Source of the DNA: an uncultured Anaerolineales bacterium
GTDB taxonomy: Bacteria; Chloroflexota; Anaerolineae; B4-G1
Direction: 5' to 3'
NCBI GenBank assembly: GCA_964474655.1
Contig: CAYYTU010000002.1
Coordinates: 64,095-128,094 of the forward strand
DNA length: 64,000 nucleotides
Made by a program: the position numbers and the translations under genes. The number at the start of each line of letters is the position of its first letter. Within the stretch, counting starts at the first letter, position 1. The notes below the pieces were generated by a model. That model searched no databases. It was not told where the DNA came from and saw only the letters and a program-made list of their open reading frames with translations. Below, in pieces: positions 3,301 to 58,893 of the stretch.

Positions 3301-5220
3301 CTCGGCGTTTGCCAGCACCTGCGCCACCTGATCGGCGATAGCCCCGGCAAAGCTCAATTCGTCGGGCCTCCACTCACGCGGTTCGCCAACGTGCTCGTGG
3401 CACACGACGCCGACCGTCTCGCCGGTCATCCGAATCGCCGAGTCCAGCATTGAGGTAATCCCTAGCGGTTCCAGATAATCCTCGGCAAACTCGCTGGTGC
3501 GCGGATCGGTGCGAGCGCGATCGGCGTCGATCGTCCGCTCAGTCGTCACTGCCGAGAAGTAAGCGGGGTAATCCTCCGCCTCAAGGACGACGCCCTCGGT
3601 GTGAGTTTCCGACGTGCGTTCGAAGAGATCCTGGCACGTTATCGCCCGCTGATTCTCATCCAGCATCCAGATACTGACCCGTTCGACGTCCATCGTTTCG
3701 GCCACTGTCTCCGTGATAGCTGATAGGGCCTCCTCCCAATCGCCGCTCACGACAGCGTCGTGGGTAGCCAACTCGGCGATAGCATGCTGTTGCCGCTGGA
3801 CGCGCTCCAATCGAGCCTGCTGCGCTCTCTCCGTCCGCTTGCGATCAAGGGCGCTGACAAACGTTTCGCCCACCAGATGGAGAAGGGTCGCGTCATCCTC
3901 AGACCAGGCCCGCTCCTCCTCCACCGCGTCAAACCCCAGGAATCCCACCAACTCACCCTGGTACATAGCGGGGACGACGATGAGCGATTGAATGCCCTCC
4001 GATTCAAACTCCGCCTTCTCGATCCTGGCTTCGTCGGGCATATCGGCCACGCGAGGCACCAGAACATCCTCATGGTTACGAAGCTTCTCCATCAGCCATG
4101 GGAACTGGTCGCTGGGCACTTCCTGCAAGTCGTCAATGGCGGACGCAATACCTTCAGCGCACCATTCGTGAGTATTGCTCATCTGCTCCCCATCCTCGGA
4201 GAATAAGAAGAGATAGCTGCGATCCGCCTCCGTGAACTTCCCAATATCCCGCATGGCCCGGTCGATCTCGACATCCACCGCCTGCGGCTTTACATTGACG
4301 AACCGCGTGGAGATGTTGGCGATGAGGTCCTCGAATTCAGCGCGGTACTCCAACGACCGCTCCGCTTGTTTGCGCTCGGTCACGTCGCGGATGATGGCCA
4401 GCACTTCATCCTCGCCGCTGACGACCATTCGGGCTTCGTAGTCGCGCAGCACATCGTCTTCCATACGGGGCAACCGGTACTCATAGATCGCCGGTTGACC
4501 CGAAGCCAGAACTTTCTCTATATGCTCATTGGTGAGCTGAGCGACGTGCGGAGGCAGAACGTCCTCTATATTCTGCCCCAGGAAAGCCCTCGGGGGCAAG
4601 GCCAGATCGCCTCTGCCAGCGTGGAAGTCGATGAAGACCCCCTCCCGATTCAGTCGGAACATCAAGTCGGGAATAGCCTCAAGCAATGTCTCCATCTGGG
4701 CCTGGCTCTGCTGCAACTCCTCTTCCGCCCGACTACGTTCGGTGATATCGGAGATGAAGCCCTCCAGGGCCACCAGCTCGCCGTCGTCCGAGAAGACACC
4801 CTGCCCGCGCTCCCAGACCCAGCGGGGCTCACCTTCAGCGTCTCTGATGCGATAGGTGACCTGGAAAGGCTCTTTTTTCTCAACGCCAGCCTGGACTACC
4901 TCCCACACGAGGTCCTGGTCGTCCGGATGGATCAAATCGCCATAAGCCACCAGACGGCTACCGATCAAATCCTCAGGGGCATAGCCGGTCAAGTCCTCGG
5001 CCCCTTCGCTGACGAACGCCATCGGCCAATCGGGCTCGTTGCGGCAGCGGTACGCCATGCCCGGCAAGTTGCTCATCAGCCTCGAAAGCCGACGATGGCT
5101 TTCCAACAACTTTTCCCTCGTCAATTCGCGCCCGGTGAGCTCTTCGGTCATACTTTCCTCCTCGATGGGGCCGGAGCCCTCATTCCGAACTTCCCGTTCA
5201 GGCCTCTCATTATCCATCAT
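394..5220 (-). CDS. Large cytoplasmic multi-PAS / multi-GAF signalling protein (1608 aa) with no recognisable output domain. Carries the conserved C-terminal tail module shared with the GAF paralog array.
   Basis: Six-frame ORF. Several PAS-like segments at the N-terminus, for example LMFRLNREGVFIDFHAG and DITERKQAE. Several GAF domains with the LDVQS / NARLFEQ signature. C-terminus reads REETLREITAHVRGFTDPDAIVRAAVRELGTALGRPTFARLGS followed by a DG-rich tail. Start ATGATG has GGGAG 8 nt upstream. Confidence 0.8.
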   Translation of the reverse strand: MMDNERPEREVRNEGSGPIEEESMTEELTGRELTREKLLESHRRLSRLMSNLPGMAYRCRNEPDWPMAFVSEGAEDLTGYAPEDLIGSRLVAYGDLIHPDDQDLVWEVVQAGVEKKEPFQVTYRIRDAEGEPRWVWERGQGVFSDDGELVALEGFISDITERSRAEEELQQSQAQMETLLEAIPDLMFRLNREGVFIDFHAGRGDLALPPRAFLGQNIEDVLPPHVAQLTNEHIEKVLASGQPAIYEYRLPRMEDDVLRDYEARMVVSGEDEVLAIIRDVTERKQAERSLEYRAEFEDLIANISTRFVNVKPQAVDVEIDRAMRDIGKFTEADRSYLFLFSEDGEQMSNTHEWCAEGIASAIDDLQEVPSDQFPWLMEKLRNHEDVLVPRVADMPDEARIEKAEFESEGIQSLIVVPAMYQGELVGFLGFDAVEEERAWSEDDATLLHLVGETFVSALDRKRTERAQQARLERVQRQQHAIAELATHDAVVSGDWEEALSAITETVAETMDVERVSIWMLDENQRAITCQDLFERTSETHTEGVVLEAEDYPAYFSAVTTERTIDADRARTDPRTSEFAEDYLEPLGITSMLDSAIRMTGETVGVVCHEHVGEPREWRPDELSFAGAIADQVAQVLANAERRQLERQIQESLERRAQQVELTTEIAQEIAGAPALDSLYRRVVTLVKERLGYYHVQIFRYDEDLEAMRVVEGYGEIGDKMKAAEHHLPYGEGVVGTAAATGEPMLASDVTADPHWKPHPDLPETEGELAVPIKLRDEVLGVLDVQSDQAGALTEEDQVMLLGLAGQIASAIESTNLLAEVQESQQFLDTIVDNIPNPIFYQDAEGVYLGCNEAFLEYLGMPGEDVKGKTVYDITPDQEMAELYHELDMEMLNNPCTESYEAPIEYADGSIRDVVFYKTTFRNPDGSVGGLIGTFLDITDLKETEKALQQSEERYRSYIDNAPDGIFISDEEGRYLEVNEAACRITGYSREELLEMHIVDLLPPESMAEAGDHFQQLTETGKATGDFKFIRKDGAERYWTVDAVKLSDTRFLGFTKDITERVRAEQMLNERVKELNCLTDVGQYIAEEPSIPDLLQWVAGRIPSAMRYPEVCVTAIKFEEQVYGQPQALELSCHVVSALRISGETAGHLYVAYEEDRDFIDEESAMLGGVVRRLESYIEQRLAAQQIEKRARQLAAVAEVASSTGVILDPDELIRRTADTVRERFDLYYVGLFMVDETGEWTGEPGEWAVLRTGTGEAGRQMLEDGHKLRVGGDSMVGSCVAEGEARIALDVGDEAARFDNPYLPETRSELALPITARGEIIGALTVQSTEAAAFSEEDVTVFQTMVDQVATAIENARLFEQTQDALAEAEMLYEISRELNEADTKEDLLQALARTAIESGAFDAKLSYVDLDEQGEPTGLTTVAVWRRGGALEESVGRHLPLAEFPVTRLWEGEPHSPLLVSDLAHDERIDGDVKRFLQQFGVRAVAIIPLTQVGRWAGLVTLSWDEPHQFSEREREIYRALVTLAAPVVASRRLLERAQARARREETLREITAHVRGFTDPDAIVRAAVRELGTALGRPTFARLGSAQELSQPPTDGGDGDGETAED

Positions 5221-33522: not shown

Positions 33523-33615
33523 GACCCAAGTGCTGCGCCCCCTTCGGCTGAAGTCTGATACGCTCGGTAAACGCGCCTGTAGAATTTTGATAGACGAAAT
33601 CGGTAACGAGGTTGA

Positions 33616-33824
33616 GGCACGGTCAGGAGACCGGCCCCAGCGGGTAAAAGTGCATTAGGGTAAAAGTCGCACCTAATCGCTCAAAGCCACCGTCTCGGGG
33701 GCGTCCGACACGATTTTTGTGCCCTAAACGCCCTCGGGGACGAGGGCTGTGAACAGTGGAAAAGTCGGTGTGTCACTTTTACCTCAATGCGTAAAAGTGC
33801 TCTGGCCGGTCTCCCGACCGTGCC
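33616..33824. ncRNA. Candidate structured non-coding RNA domain (about 210 nt) closed by a 21-bp long-range helix.
   Basis: GGCACGGTCAGGAGACCGGCC (33616..33636) is the reverse complement of GGCCGGTCTCCCGACCGTGCC (33804..33824) with one mismatch. Internal complementary pairs include GGTAAAAGTG / CACTTTTACC, CGGGGGCGT / ACGCCCTCG and GCCCTC / GAGGGC. It lies in a 1.1-kb ORF-poor lower-GC intergenic region. The strand is undetermined. Confidence 0.4.
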
Positions 33825-34620
33825 AGCGGTACTCTCGACAGAAATGAAACACAACCCAATCAATCTAATCTGACGAAAGAAATCACGTCTTTACCGAACT
33901 TGAACGTCAAAACTCATTAGGCAATCGATTGCGTCTAGGGTGCTTGGGAACTGCTTCGCTTGCCCATCCGACAGGCTTCGGCCTGAGCCCAGCCGAACGG
34001 CTCAGGATGACTATCGAGGGATCAACTTCGTTGAAATCCCGTTGTAGTGCTAAGGAACCTCGTAATAACCTCCCCCTTTTCAGATTGAGCCAAAATTACC
34101 CTCCGACGAGCTTCGGATGATTTTGGCGACCTCCGAGTGCAAAGCCACTCGAAATCGCCCTTCGACGCTCAGGGCAATTTCTCGCTAGACAGTGAGCAAG
34201 AAAGTCATCTGCTCGTCGTTCCTAAAGATGGTACCATAGTACCATCTTGACCCCGTAACTACGCCCCCTCTCTGTCCGTTAGTCAAAATGAATAGGTCGA
34301 CAATGGCAACATAACATTCCGGGTCTCCAGGATTTCGCTGGCCGGCAACTCGGGCTAGCTCAGAGGGGGTGTTCCACCCCCGTATCGGGTCCGAAATTGG
34401 GCCTGGCCCCCAGATATGGGACGCGGGTGACACACCCGCTGTGAGCACCCTTGAGCACCACGCAAAATCCCAAAGAGCCAACATTCCAAGCCACCAGCGA
34501 TCAAATACTGAGGAACGCGTCTCCCCCTATGGGACCCTATCACAAAACTTAAAACACGCGCCCAAGTAGATTTGGGTCGAAAAGACCCCGCACCAAGAAG
34601 TAAAAGATAAGGAGGATCAG

Positions 34621-35556
34621 ATGACAACGGTATTGATTGTACTGACAATCGCGTCCTTGGTCGGAGGAGGCCTGGTTCAAGTGGCCGACGAATCCGGCCC
34701 AGGCAGCCCGCTCTATGAGCTGAATCGAAGAATCGAGGCGGTCCAGATCGAGATGACGACCAATCCCACGGCCAGGACCGAGCTCCAGACGAATCTGGCC
34801 GAAGAGCGACTAGAAGAGGCCGAAGCATTAGCCCAAGCGGGTGAAATAGAAAACGCTCGCCAGGCCCTGCAGATCTATGATGAGCAGGTCTCTCACACCA
34901 CACAGACCGACGAAGTCGATGAAGCTGCGTTGCTTGGGTCCCTCGCCAACCACGAGGAACAGTTGGACCGAATATACAACGCCTTAGCAGATCGCGCCAG
35001 AGAGGACGATACCTCCGGACAGCCCGATAACGAACCCCCAAATCAGGAAGAAGAGGAAGGGGAAGGGGAAGAAGAAGAAGAGAACGAAAGTGAGCTCCCC
35101 ACCGATTCACCCTGGTGCACCGGTGAATGGGAACATCCCGTAGCCAGCCAGATGGCCTCCTACCACGACGTGAGCTACAACGAAGTCATCGGGTGGTTCT
35201 GCAACGAGGGCTACGGCCTCGGCGAAATCAAATTGGCGTTGCAAACGAGCCAACTGCTCGGATCCACAGACGTACTGACCGACACCAGCGCCGGTGCGCT
35301 TCTGACGATGAAGAGGGAGCTAGGTGGCTGGGGAGACGTATGGCAAGATTTCGATCTGATCGGTCAGCCCGATGAGGCTGCCCCCCCCGAAGAAGTCGGT
35401 CCACCCGAGGAAGTCGGGCCTCCAGATGAAGCTGGCCCACCTGACGACGCCGGCCCTCCCGACGAAGCCGGGCCCCCAGACGAAGCTGGCCCACCTGACG
35501 GCGCTGGCCCACCTGACGACGCCGGGCCCCCCGCTAAAGGCGGTCCCAATAACTGA
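34621..35556 (+). CDS. Membrane-anchored protein with a coiled coil, an acidic stretch, a Cys-containing domain and C-terminal GPPDEA hexapeptide tandem repeats.
   Basis: AAGGAGG lies 7 nt upstream of the ATG. N-terminal TM segment VLIVLTIASLVGGGLV. Eight 18-bp DNA tandem repeats at 35395..35545 encode (E/D)(E/A)(V/A)GPP-type repeats. Confidence 0.6.
   Translation: MTTVLIVLTIASLVGGGLVQVADESGPGSPLYELNRRIEAVQIEMTTNPTARTELQTNLAEERLEEAEALAQAGEIENARQALQIYDEQVSHTTQTDEVDEAALLGSLANHEEQLDRIYNALADRAREDDTSGQPDNEPPNQEEEEGEGEEEEENESELPTDSPWCTGEWEHPVASQMASYHDVSYNEVIGWFCNEGYGLGEIKLALQTSQLLGSTDVLTDTSAGALLTMKRELGGWGDVWQDFDLIGQPDEAAPPEEVGPPEEVGPPDEAGPPDDAGPPDEAGPPDEAGPPDGAGPPDDAGPPAKGGPNN
35395..35545 (+). 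repeat. About 8 tandem 18-bp repeats inside the coding sequence (GG(C/G)CC(A/C)CC(T/C)GA(C/G)GA(A/C)G(C/T)(C/T)).
   Basis: Direct read: ggtccacccgaggaagtc / gggcctccagatgaagct / ggcccacctgacgacgcc and so on. Confidence 0.8.
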
Positions 35557-56007: not shown

Positions 56008-56769
56008 TTACACCTCCACGCCCAAAACCTGCATCTCCGCCGGTGCGTTGCTGCGGAGCGCGTTGAAGATCACGACCGTCAGCAGCCCCTCGCTGATCGC
56101 CAGGGGGACCTGCGTGACGGCGAAGACGGCCCCGAACTTGAGGAACGAGGCCATAAAGCCGCCCGTCGGGTCGGGATAGGCCAGCGCCAGCTGCACCGAG
56201 GTCACGACGTAAGTGGCCCAGTCGGCGAAGGCCGCGGCCAGGAACACCGCCACGCCGCGGGGTAGATTCCCCTTCAGCGCACGCCAGATCGCCGCGGCGA
56301 CCAGCGGTCCGGCGATGGCCATACTGAACGCGTTGGCGCCCAACGTCGTCAGGCCGCCGTGGGCCAGCAGGAGCGCCTGGAACAACAGCACGATGGAGCC
56401 CAGCACGCTCATAATCGTCGGCCCGAAGAGCACGGCTCCCAGCCCGGTGCCGGTGGGATGACTGCTGGAACCGGTGACGCTGGGGATCTTCAGTGCGCTG
56501 AGCACGAAGGCGAAGGCCCCGCTGAGCGCCAGCAGCAGCCGCGATTCCGGCTTCTCAGCCACCGTGCGGCGCAGGCGGATGAAGCCCACTACCCAGAACG
56601 GGATCGTCACCGCGAACCAGAAGATGGCCCAGCCCGGCGGCAGATACCCTTCCATAATGTGCATTTCTGGTGGGGCAGCGACCGTGCGAGCCCAGGCCAC
56701 GCGCACCCCGGCCAGCAACAGCGCCGCAAGGCCCACCAGACACCAACGCGTCATCCGTTTCTTTGACAT
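56008..56769 (-). CDS. cbiM: Cobalt transport substrate-capture component CbiM.
   Basis: Signal peptide, then the CbiM N-terminal motif MHIMEGYLP and seven TM helices. AAGGAGAG lies upstream. Confidence 0.85.
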
Positions 56770-57052
56770 TGTTTCTCTCCTTTACCTTGATCTTGTGAGT
56801 ACACTTTGCAGTTGCGTGGCGCTCACGAGCCAGGTTGCGCACCGGCTCCGAGCGTCACGTCCGAACCATCCTTGAGATAGAGCGATGCGTGCCCTCTACG
56901 ATCCATCAGGGCAGCGCACCCAACGCTGCATAGACGATCACCTCCTCGATACACGATGAACGCGCAGCAGGGCAGGATATGACCGTCTCGTCGCCGTGCA
57001 GCGTCTCTCAGGACAGCCCGACCGTCTTCATAATCGAGATGATCGAGCGGAG

Positions 57053-57095
57053 AAACAGAAACCCCTTGCCAGTTCGATGCTCGGCAAGGGGCAGG
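57053..57095 (-). terminator. Intrinsic terminator hairpin forming the expression platform of the cobalamin riboswitch.
   Basis: Minus-sense hairpin CCCCTTGCC-gagcatcgaact-GGCAAGGGG followed by TTTCTGTTTCT. Confidence 0.55.
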
Positions 57096-57099
57096 CGCA

Positions 57100-57275
57100 A
57101 GAATCTCGGCTGCTCCCACTCCCTTCCGCGAGGATGTGTGGAGCCGATGGCGGCGGGCGATCTGACTTCCTGGTCGAGCCAGGTTACAGCTGCGGGACAA
57201 CGCCGGACTCTCACCGGCTTCGCCGTTGCCACCCGGGCCATCCGGAGCCGCGGGTACCGCCATCGCTCGTTTCAA
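57100..57275 (-). ncRNA. Probable cobalamin (B12) riboswitch aptamer upstream of cbiMNQO.
   Basis: Minus-sense sequence contains GGTGAGAGTCCGG (consensus GGTGAAAATCC), CCCGCAGCTGTAA (consensus CCCGCAACTGTAA) and a B12-box-like AGTCAGATCGCCCGCC. Upstream of a cobalt transporter is the classical position. Confidence 0.6.
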
Positions 57276-57299
57276 TTGTCAACGTCAGTAAACCAGTAG

Positions 57300-57490
57300 G
57301 ACGGGATTGCTAACTGACTGGACTTTGGACAAATCTTGTTTGAACCTTCCCGAAAGCTTTCCAGTGTGATGAAACTGGCTGAGAATTGCTTGAAAGTGGG
57401 CCTTTCTGACCTTTTAGGCTGTTCTTTTCAGCTTTCGGGAAGGTTGTTGGCGAAAATCTGAGCTTTATCCAAAGTCCAGTAACTGACTAC
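57300..57490. repeat. About 190-bp lower-GC imperfect inverted-repeat element. A candidate MITE or structured RNA.
   Basis: Outer arms CTGGACTTTGGA (57318..57329) and TCCAAAGTCCAG (57469..57480). Inner arms ACCTTCCCGAAAGC (57344..57357) and GCTTTCGGGAAGGT (57431..57444). The 73-nt centre carries three short hairpins. Confidence 0.5.
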
Positions 57491-58893
57491 TATCGTCGGT
57501 CTTGGCCTTCCCGCCAGCGCACGCAGGCCTGGACGAAGTTGGGCGCCAGCACGGACGAGGACCCGAAGTGCAAATGAACGTAGGAGGCCAGCAGGTTGCC
57601 GACTGCGAAGCCCTCCTGGCGCATCTCCTCCCCGCGCCGAGGCACAATCTCGTATGCGTAGGGCAGCTCGGCTGGGCGCTCCACCCAGTCCGAATAGTGG
57701 AACTCGTGCCCGCGGGTCCGCTCGCCCCGATCCAGAAGCAGCGTATCGCGTCGCGCCGTCACCTGCCGGTAGCCCATCCGCAGCCGCTCCCGCATCCGCG
57801 AGCGACCGGGCACCACGCCGACCATCGGGTACGTCCGTCCCTCCAGGTCCGTGATGCTCTCGGTCAGCACCATCAGCCCGCCACATTCGGCGTAGATCGG
57901 CATGCCGGCCTCGTGCGCCGCGCGGATGGCCGCCAGCAGCGGCTCGTTGCGGGCCAATCGCGCCGCGTAGAGCTCCGGATACCCGCCGCCCAGGTAAAGC
58001 CCGGCCACGTCCGCTGGCAGGCGATCATCATTCAGCGGGCTGAACGCCACGATCTCGGCCCCAGCCGCCCGCAGCAAATCAAGGTTGTCCTCGTAGTAAA
58101 AGCAGAACGCCTCGTCACGTGCCACGGCCAGTCGCACCAGCGCGTCCGGCGCCGCGGCCGGGGGCGAGAGCGCTCCTCCGCCCGCCAGTGGCCCGACGTC
58201 GCCGGCGATAGCCCACAATCGCGCCAGATCGACGTGCCGCGTCACCAGCGCGGCCGCGTGCTCCAAGAACGCTTCGACCTCGACCGCGCGCTCGACGGCG
58301 GTGTGCAACCCCAGATGCCGCTCCGGGATCACGATCTCGGGCGACTTCGGCAGGCAGCCCAGCACCGGCAGCCCCACCCCCTCGACGGCCTCAGTCACCC
58401 AACGCGCGTGCCGCTCGCTGCCCACCTGATTGCAGATCACGCCGGCGACGTTCAGCGCGGGATCGAAGTCGCGGTATCCCAGGGCCATCGCCCCGGCGCT
58501 GCGCGCCATCTTGCCCACGTCCAGCACCAGGATCACCGGTGCGCCGAGCAGCTTGGCGACCTCGGCGGTGCTGCCGCTTTCCGTAGTGGCGCCGTGCCCG
58601 TCGAACAGCCCCATCACGCCCTCGACGACGGCGATGTCGGCGTCGGAGGCCGCGCGGACGACGGTGACTTGCACCTGCGCCTGAGGGACCATCCACGTAT
58701 CGAGGTTGCGCGAGGGCCGTCCGGTGGCCTGGGTGTGATACATCGGATCGATGTAGTCGGGGCCGACCTTGAAGCCCTGCACGACGTGGTCGCGGGCGAG
58801 CGCCGCCATCAGCCCGGTGGCGACGGTGCTCTTGCCGCTGCCGCTGGCCGGCGCCGCGATCACCAGCCGCGGCACGTCGATGCGCTCGCTCAC
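57490..58893 (-). CDS. cbiA: Cobyrinic acid a,c-diamide synthase.
   Basis: N-terminal P-loop APASGSGKST and a C-terminal GATase domain with YAECGGLMVL. Confidence 0.85.
   Translation of the reverse strand: MSERIDVPRLVIAAPASGSGKSTVATGLMAALARDHVVQGFKVGPDYIDPMYHTQATGRPSRNLDTWMVPQAQVQVTVVRAASDADIAVVEGVMGLFDGHGATTESGSTAEVAKLLGAPVILVLDVGKMARSAGAMALGYRDFDPALNVAGVICNQVGSERHARWVTEAVEGVGLPVLGCLPKSPEIVIPERHLGLHTAVERAVEVEAFLEHAAALVTRHVDLARLWAIAGDVGPLAGGGALSPPAAAPDALVRLAVARDEAFCFYYEDNLDLLRAAGAEIVAFSPLNDDRLPADVAGLYLGGGYPELYAARLARNEPLLAAIRAAHEAGMPIYAECGGLMVLTESITDLEGRTYPMVGVVPGRSRMRERLRMGYRQVTARRDTLLLDRGERTRGHEFHYSDWVERPAELPYAYEIVPRRGEEMRQEGFAVGNLLASYVHLHFGSSSVLAPNFVQACVRWREGQDRR

Follow-up and report, generated by a model that had tools for sequence, protein, structure and literature searches.

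Miniature inverted-repeat elements (MITEs) of prokaryotes measure 50–800 bp, have terminal repeats of at least 10–15 bp, are bordered by duplications of 2–10 bp and contain no transposase (PMC11602168). The element described here is like the known examples, among them MITEAba12 of Acinetobacter, the cyanobacterial MITEs and the cMITEs of PMC11602168, in its size, its perfect terminal repeats and its short duplication. It is also like them in being without a transposase, in lying between genes and in forming a stable hairpin when transcribed, and the family to which it belongs likewise includes length variants with internal deletions (71, 117 and about 160 bp). Compared with the catalogued prokaryotic MITEs, its hosts are distinctive, as they are Chloroflexota, a phylum that the text of the 2024 MITE census does not mention.

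The Correia elements (CREE/NEMIS) of Neisseria are likewise MITEs, of about 100–155 bp, that often lie between genes and are co-transcribed with them. Their termini are 26 bp long and they duplicate TA. The present element differs in its duplication of 6–7 bp (TAACTGA, 7 bp, at this locus), in its termini and in having no promoter-like or IHF-like motif; with no TA duplication and with different termini, it was not accepted as a Correia-type MITE. The Correia elements are nevertheless of interest as the best-studied MITEs that alter the expression of their neighbours, which they do through promoters, IHF sites and RNase III cleavage (PMC10969869). The REP/BIME palindromes, which RAYT (TnpA_REP) transposases mobilise, are similarly short and intergenic, and they too can follow stop codons and fold in the mRNA. 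REPs are GC-rich single hairpins of 20–40 nt that have neither terminal inverted repeats nor target duplications, whereas the element here is 162 bp long, AT-rich relative to its host, and has both terminal repeats and a duplication.

The window, that is, the whole stretch of 64 kb that was analysed, contains a run of cobalamin genes on its minus strand in the order cbiH, cbiC, cbiD, cbiET, cbiL and cbiA. The last of these, cbiA, has its homologs in Chloroflexota metagenome-assembled genomes (MAGs) and ends with a stop codon at 57492-57490. Beyond it is a cobalamin riboswitch, the only Rfam match in the 64 kb and well recognised in relation to the RF00174 gathering score of 31.5. According to the gene calls on L027, a contig that is described below, the riboswitch is followed by cbiM, cbiN, cbiQ, an ABC ATPase gene, cobO and a GHMP-kinase gene. 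The features of the locus are as follows.

57490..58893, minus strand: cbiA (cobyrinate a,c-diamide synthase), an ORF whose homologs are so named, with PF01656/PF07685.
57480..57486, no strand given: cbiA-proximal target-site duplication, TAACTGA, ending 3 nt before the cbiA stop codon.
57318..57479, no strand given: the element, very probably a MITE; 162 bp, non-coding, GC 0.44; missing from the otherwise collinear contig L032.
57464..57479, minus strand: right terminal inverted repeat, reading CTGGACTTTGGATAAA on the minus strand.
57430..57445, minus strand: partner arm of the inner palindrome, pairing with 57343-57358.
57343..57358, plus strand: arm of the inner (subterminal) palindrome, AACCTTCCCGAAAGCT, complementary at 16/16 positions to 57430-57445.
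57318..57333, plus strand: left terminal inverted repeat, CTGGACTTTGGACAAA, with perfect pairing to the right end over its first 12 nt.
57311..57317, no strand given: riboswitch-proximal target-site duplication, TAACTGA on the plus strand and TCAGTTA on the minus strand.
57135..57276, minus strand: cobalamin riboswitch aptamer (Rfam RF00174, 54.3 bits, E = 1e-10).
56008-56769, minus strand: cbiM, downstream of the riboswitch.

Downstream of the aptamer, the minus strand has a terminator-like hairpin at 57051-57091 that resembles a riboswitch expression platform. It consists of CCCCTTGCC, a 12-nt loop and GGCAAGGGG (57091-57062), followed by TTTCTGTTTCT, and it was missed by the terminator scan because its loop is longer than 8 nt. 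About 280 nt separate this hairpin from the cbiM start codon. A tiny ORF, MQRWVRCPDGS*, with GAGGAGG ahead of it, lies in this interval (56896-56931, minus strand), and it may be a chance occurrence or a leader peptide.

The preliminary description had placed an inverted-repeat element at 57300-57490, between cbiA and the riboswitch. The nested inverted repeat is real; its extent is 57318-57479, or 162 bp. The repeat finder returned outer arms, with CTGGACTTTGGA at 57318-57329, that pair perfectly (12/12) with the complement at 57468-57479, as had been reported for the outer 12-bp pair. The inner arms proved longer than the 14 bp reported, being perfect at 16 of 16 positions, and they enclose a centre of 71 nt and not of 73 nt. 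Taken over 16 nt, the outer arms have one mismatch, and an imperfect extension reaches 37 nt at 73%. Chance matches to the inner 16-mer arm are expected 0.03 times in the window. The three short hairpins ascribed to the centre are present as written. The lower GC content was also borne out, with 0.44 in the element against 0.66 in its 1-kb flanks, and with 0.45–0.46 across the element in 100-nt windows against 0.65–0.74 in cbiA.

A 9-nt direct repeat that is not in the preliminary description, TAACTGACT, brackets the inverted repeat at 57311-57319 and 57480-57488. When symmetrical ends CTGGAC...GTCCAG are assumed, the element spans 57318-57479 and the duplication is 7 bp. It can be read as 8 or 9 bp if the shared extra bases are counted, and in the 9-bp reading the cbiA-side repeat runs to 57488, 1 nt from the stop codon. 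The insertion point is thus 1–3 nt past the cbiA stop and about 41 nt upstream of the riboswitch aptamer. On the minus strand, the order is TAG-TAG-TCAGTTA-(CTGGAC...GTCCAG, 162 bp)-TCAGTTA-GCAATCCCGTCC. Because the target was duplicated, some 50 nt directly ahead of the aptamer keep their sequence, and what lies further upstream is shifted by 169 bp.

Folding of the 211-nt stretch that includes the element gave -68.7 kcal/mol for the minus strand and -80.6 kcal/mol for the plus strand. The z values for the two strands were -6.7 and -6.3, and none of 200 shuffles folded as well. There is no transposase gene within the 162 bp, where the longest ORF is one of 41 aa. An exact look-up of this ORF in the protein collection found no record, and a search with concatenated six-frame translations, aimed at spurious ORFs called on other copies, found no homologous protein among the 5.8 billion covered.

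The closest CbiA in public data, P0001, is 92% identical to that of the window and is encoded on a 2.1-kb JGI contig, L032, which extends 238 nt beyond its cbiA stop codon. L032 aligns to the window on both sides of the junction, and what it lacks is precisely the inverted repeat together with one of the two direct-repeat copies. Its sequence there is TGA-AGATCGCGG-TCGGTTA-GCAATCCCG, where GCAATCCCG also follows TCAGTTA in the window; in a longer form, the same junction is TGA-AGATCGCGG-TCGGTTA-GCAATCCCGTCC. The single copy of the target in the empty site, TCGGTTA, is at L032:1919-1925. Identity between the two sequences is about 97% in the riboswitch region and complete in the leader just ahead of the aptamer. 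The window represents the filled site, with its target-site duplication, and L032 the empty one. Evidence for the empty site comes from this one contig, since only L032 shares the cbiA|riboswitch junction; the more distant cbiA relatives (L033-L035, L066 and L067, 73–74% identity) are uninformative on the junction because other genes follow their cbiA.

The insertion is recent, because it postdates the split from a relative with a 92% identical CbiA and because the duplication and the 12-nt termini are still perfect. Since L032 keeps the same leader without the element, the promoter and the riboswitch are independent of it. The B12 biology of the locus is presumably unchanged, given that a relative without the element has a riboswitch region that is about 97% identical. 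The last 30 nt or so of cbiA together with the target (57480-57520 versus L032:1880-1925) are about 65% identical by hand count, and the CbiA C-termini read ...WREGQDRR in the window and ...WREARG in L032.

It had been suggested that a MITE might have brought a promoter to this site, and a TTGACA was pointed out at the reverse complement of 57277-57282. The hexamer is there, right next to position 57276, where the Rfam aptamer match starts; P1 pairing of the aptamer begins about 9 nt beyond the match start. It is unlikely to be the -35 element of the riboswitch promoter, because the matching -10 element and the transcription start would fall inside the aptamer. Nor did the notion of an insertion that carries a promoter hold up, as no sigma-70-like site was detected in the element or its surroundings, even with the threshold relaxed to 8/12, and L032, where the element is absent, shares both the riboswitch and the 50 nt that precede it.

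Copies elsewhere were sought by several routes. A scan with the terminus pattern over one genome per species yielded 26 loci, about the number expected by chance. Six of them (L001, L006, L007, L014, L015 and L018) are real elements as judged by BLAST and terminus pairing, and the 16-mer CTGGACTTTGGACAAA ends the element in each; the remaining 20 are single ends, most of them inside long ORFs. By BLAST, the copy in L007 is 92% identical to the window's element over 161 nt and that in L001 is 77% identical over 162 nt. A half-element pattern run over the JGI metagenomes retrieved six contigs (L036-L041), all from metagenome Ga0180301, with full, shortened (117 bp, 71 bp) or truncated copies. 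The profile HMM matched L001, L007, L036-L041 and L068, and the inner palindrome arm (57343-57358) is conserved in L001, L007 and L036-L041. Among the Ga0180301 contigs, L039 has the left half only (4200-4389), and L036 has both halves of the MITE with about 190 bp of GC-rich, unrelated sequence between them (3713-3977). This interrupted copy could be a nested insertion.

The other four elements, in L006, L014, L015 and L018, have the same 16-nt terminus and interiors that are unrelated to that of the window's element. Common ends with differing interiors would be expected where a single type of transposase acts on several deletion derivatives. Three of these contigs (L006, L014, L018) are from Anaerolineae MAGs, and L015 is from Spirulina sp. 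CS-785/01, so the terminus is shared across phyla and presumably its transposase is as well. The elements at L006:2979-3129, L014:2871-3021 and L018:394-594 have a different subterminal palindrome (AGAAACCNGGTTT...) inside the same terminus. The Spirulina element, at L015:7447-7696, is 250 bp long.

For the reading of duplications, the ends of the copies were defined as YTGGAC...GTCCAR. On this definition, duplications are ACAATTA in L040, TCAGTA in L041, ATTTTG in L015 and TGTTCA in L006, that is, 6 or 7 bp depending on the copy, with an ambiguous terminal base; three copies (L001, L007 and L014) have no clean duplication. Every copy is intergenic and has a GC content below that of its flanks, which for L007 are 48% GC compared with 66% at the window locus. 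The low GC, the long hairpin potential and the absence of coding capacity are traits of the element and not of the locus. The neighbours of the other copies are unrelated to cobalamin: a sigma-70 gene and a metallo-beta-lactamase-fold gene in L001, nusG and rplK on the two sides of the copy in L040, genes for a TPR protein and ornithine carbamoyltransferase in L041, ABC transporter genes in L006, beta-lactamase-like genes in L014 and an M48 peptidase gene in L007. The preliminary description had regarded multiple copies with short target-site duplications as the mark of a plain MITE, and its suggestion of a MITE-like insertion is the one that agrees with these data: copies do exist elsewhere, and short duplications flank several of them.

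The contigs that host the element family are Chloroflexota (Anaerolineae-type). At first sight L007 is out of place here, as this contig (CAZSOZ010000010.1, region 3528-5048) belongs to a MAG labelled 'uncultured archaeon'. Its M48 gene, however, has its nearest named homologs exclusively in Chloroflexota/Anaerolineae, with Acidobacteriota near the bottom of the list at 44–47% identity. The archaeal label is therefore doubtful, we do not propose a transfer between domains by way of L007, and the contig is likely mis-binned or mislabelled.

The pattern search and the profile HMM found one copy only in the 64-kb window. Contig breaks in other assemblies of the organism bear on the rest of its genome. 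Two Logan assemblies from different runs, L027 and L028, encode the window's exact CbiM, and both start at 57348, 31 nt inside the element, from where they run into unique flank. Logan assemblies presumably use k = 31. In a graph of 31-mers, the start of a unique contig lies 30 nt ahead of the divergence, which is thereby placed at 57318, the element's last base. A break at 57348 would be expected if other copies had the same end. From these breaks we infer, indirectly, several copies in the source genome. A contig from another run, L068, ends 43 nt into a copy of the L007 type. Three further Logan contigs of the same organism (L029, L030 and L031) break 22–122 codons into cbiA, and the exact CbiA of the window returned no record in an exact-protein look-up; together, these observations suggest strain variation in cbiA within those samples.

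As for a parent, no transposase-bearing element with these termini was present in the fetched loci, viral contigs or plasmids. One pair of termini, in L004, is 1.4 kb apart and was considered as a full-length IS; it was rejected since it is inside ordinary coding sequence. The intergenic single ends with a large adjacent ORF were also checked, L026 excepted, and the ORFs adjoining those in L020, L022, L002 and L008 turned out to encode FAD synthetase, M16 peptidases, MutY-like and RecG-like proteins, none of them a transposase. In the viral contigs, the half-element pattern had 0 matches and the 16-nt terminus had 24 single, unpaired matches that were taken as chance. Plasmid BLAST searches with the element alone, and then with five family members concatenated with the window copy, gave no match, and neither did CTGGACTTTGGACAAA with the interior in the plasmid or phage-contig collections. 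The terminal sequence was not found in the searchable literature, where papers that treat IS families by duplication length gave no terminal consensus sequences. Few IS groups are known to make 6–7-bp duplications, which offers a lead to the IS family. It would appear, then, that this is a MITE of a new and apparently undescribed family.

Taken together, the data make it very probable that 57318-57479 is one copy of a non-autonomous DNA transposon, i.e., a MITE. The size of 162 bp is delimited by the empty site in L032, the terminal repeats are perfect at 12/12 positions, TAACTGA stands on both sides in place of the one copy (TCGGTTA) of L032, there is no transposase, and copies are dispersed at unrelated loci (L001, L007, L036-L041, L068). 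These comparisons establish that the segment was inserted, has terminal inverted repeats, duplicated its target and belongs to a dispersed family with deletion variants. As to how it arrived, a transposase encoded elsewhere would recognise the inverted CTGGACTTTGGACAAA ends; from established transposon biology, this would be a DDE-type enzyme acting in trans. It would make a staggered cut of 6–7 bp at an AT-rich target, and repair of the stagger would duplicate TAACTGA (7 bp). If cbiA and the riboswitch are co-transcribed, their transcript would gain a hairpin of about 160 nt and about -60 kcal/mol. For the expression of cbiMNQO, the insertion is most likely a neutral passenger, which we take as the default assumption.

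It is tempting to ask whether the MITE has been co-opted, so that its hairpin or its ends act as a promoter, a terminator/insulator or an RNase site that separates cbiMNQO from the upstream cbi operon. The element does lie between two co-directional units that have no recognisable terminator or promoter of their own, the hairpin in the transcript is very stable (-68.7 kcal/mol for the 211-nt stretch), and the copy in L040 is also inside an operon, between nusG and rplK. Moreover, MITEs elsewhere supply promoters, IHF sites, RNase III sites and terminator-like structures (PMC10969869). We nonetheless consider co-option unlikely. At relaxed thresholds, no sigma-70-like promoter, intrinsic terminator or IHF consensus was found in or beside the element; there is no -35/-10 pair even at 8/12 and no U-tract after the hairpin, which on the minus strand is followed by TCAGTTAGCAATCCC, and the terminator scan of 56700-57700 detected no GC-rich hairpin with a U-tract directly after it. 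In addition, the insertion is recent and has left intact the core 50 nt that precede the aptamer, and L032 keeps an identical riboswitch and leader, so the locus works without the element. A more elaborate proposal starts from an undescribed transposon family that moved recently between distant hosts, in view of the L007 copy with its 48% GC flanks and of the 16-nt terminus in Spirulina. Here the insertion would have been retained because a hairpin of some 160 nt serves to insulate or process the RNA that runs from the cobalamin biosynthesis genes into the cobalt transporter genes under riboswitch control. This proposal is likewise improbable.

The remaining explanations concern the nature of the segment itself. 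MITEs arise when a full-length insertion sequence loses its transposase gene, and with no parent known it might be supposed that such a sequence landed here and was deleted in place, never having moved as a MITE. This is very unlikely, for the same interior (inner palindrome and central segment) is present at other loci in other genomes at 77–92% identity, which means that the deleted form itself has spread. Among the earlier suggestions was a non-coding RNA with a defined structure. Such an RNA, whether a small RNA or a second leader element that regulates in cis together with the B12 riboswitch, might seem to agree with the strong predicted folding on both strands and with the position directly upstream of the riboswitch. 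Folding that is equal on both strands, however, is expected of a DNA palindrome. No Rfam model matches the element above its gathering score: permissive thresholds gave only noise, the best being mir-186, a eukaryotic miRNA model, at 23 bits where the gathering score is 70. Base pairs of the central hairpins are lost without compensation in L007, L001 and L039; the first hairpin, CCAGT...ACTGG, is changed to CAAGT...ACTAG in L007 and to CAGAA...TCTAG in L001, and the mismatches are uncompensated. Copies occur in unrelated contexts, and the closest relative, L032, has the same riboswitch and is without the element. The RNA proposal is largely refuted by this empty site, and we regard it as extremely unlikely. 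Lower still is the probability, practically negligible, of a large palindromic operator for a cobalt- or B12-responsive regulator. Dyad symmetry and a place in the control region of a cobalt transporter operon would be in keeping with this earlier suggestion, but the same sequence flanks rpoD, nusG/rplK, M48 peptidase, ornithine carbamoyltransferase (OTCase) and ABC transporter genes elsewhere, its copies show no enrichment near cobalamin or cobalt genes, a target-site duplication flanks it, and the orthologous control region of L032 does not contain it.

For annotation, the MITE accounts for the compositional and structural anomaly beside the riboswitch, and its palindrome should not be taken as a promoter, an operator or an RNA gene. 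It would also account for the breaks in short-read assemblies of the source organism at this point. A MITE family is added to the Chloroflexota (Anaerolineae-type genomes), a phylum with few catalogued transposons, together with a clear filled/empty site pair and a defined terminus, CTGGACTTTGGACAAA, with which the parent transposase can be sought.

A second intergenic inverted repeat was observed in the window at 33616-33824, between an ORF that ends at 33551 (plus strand) and an ORF at 34355-35110 (minus strand). Its 26-nt arms, GGCACGGTCAGGAGACCGGCCCCAGC and GCTCTGGCCGGTCTCCCGACCGTGCC, are 88% complementary and 157 nt apart, and the interior contains repeated GTAAAAGTG motifs. This element could represent another MITE-like family.
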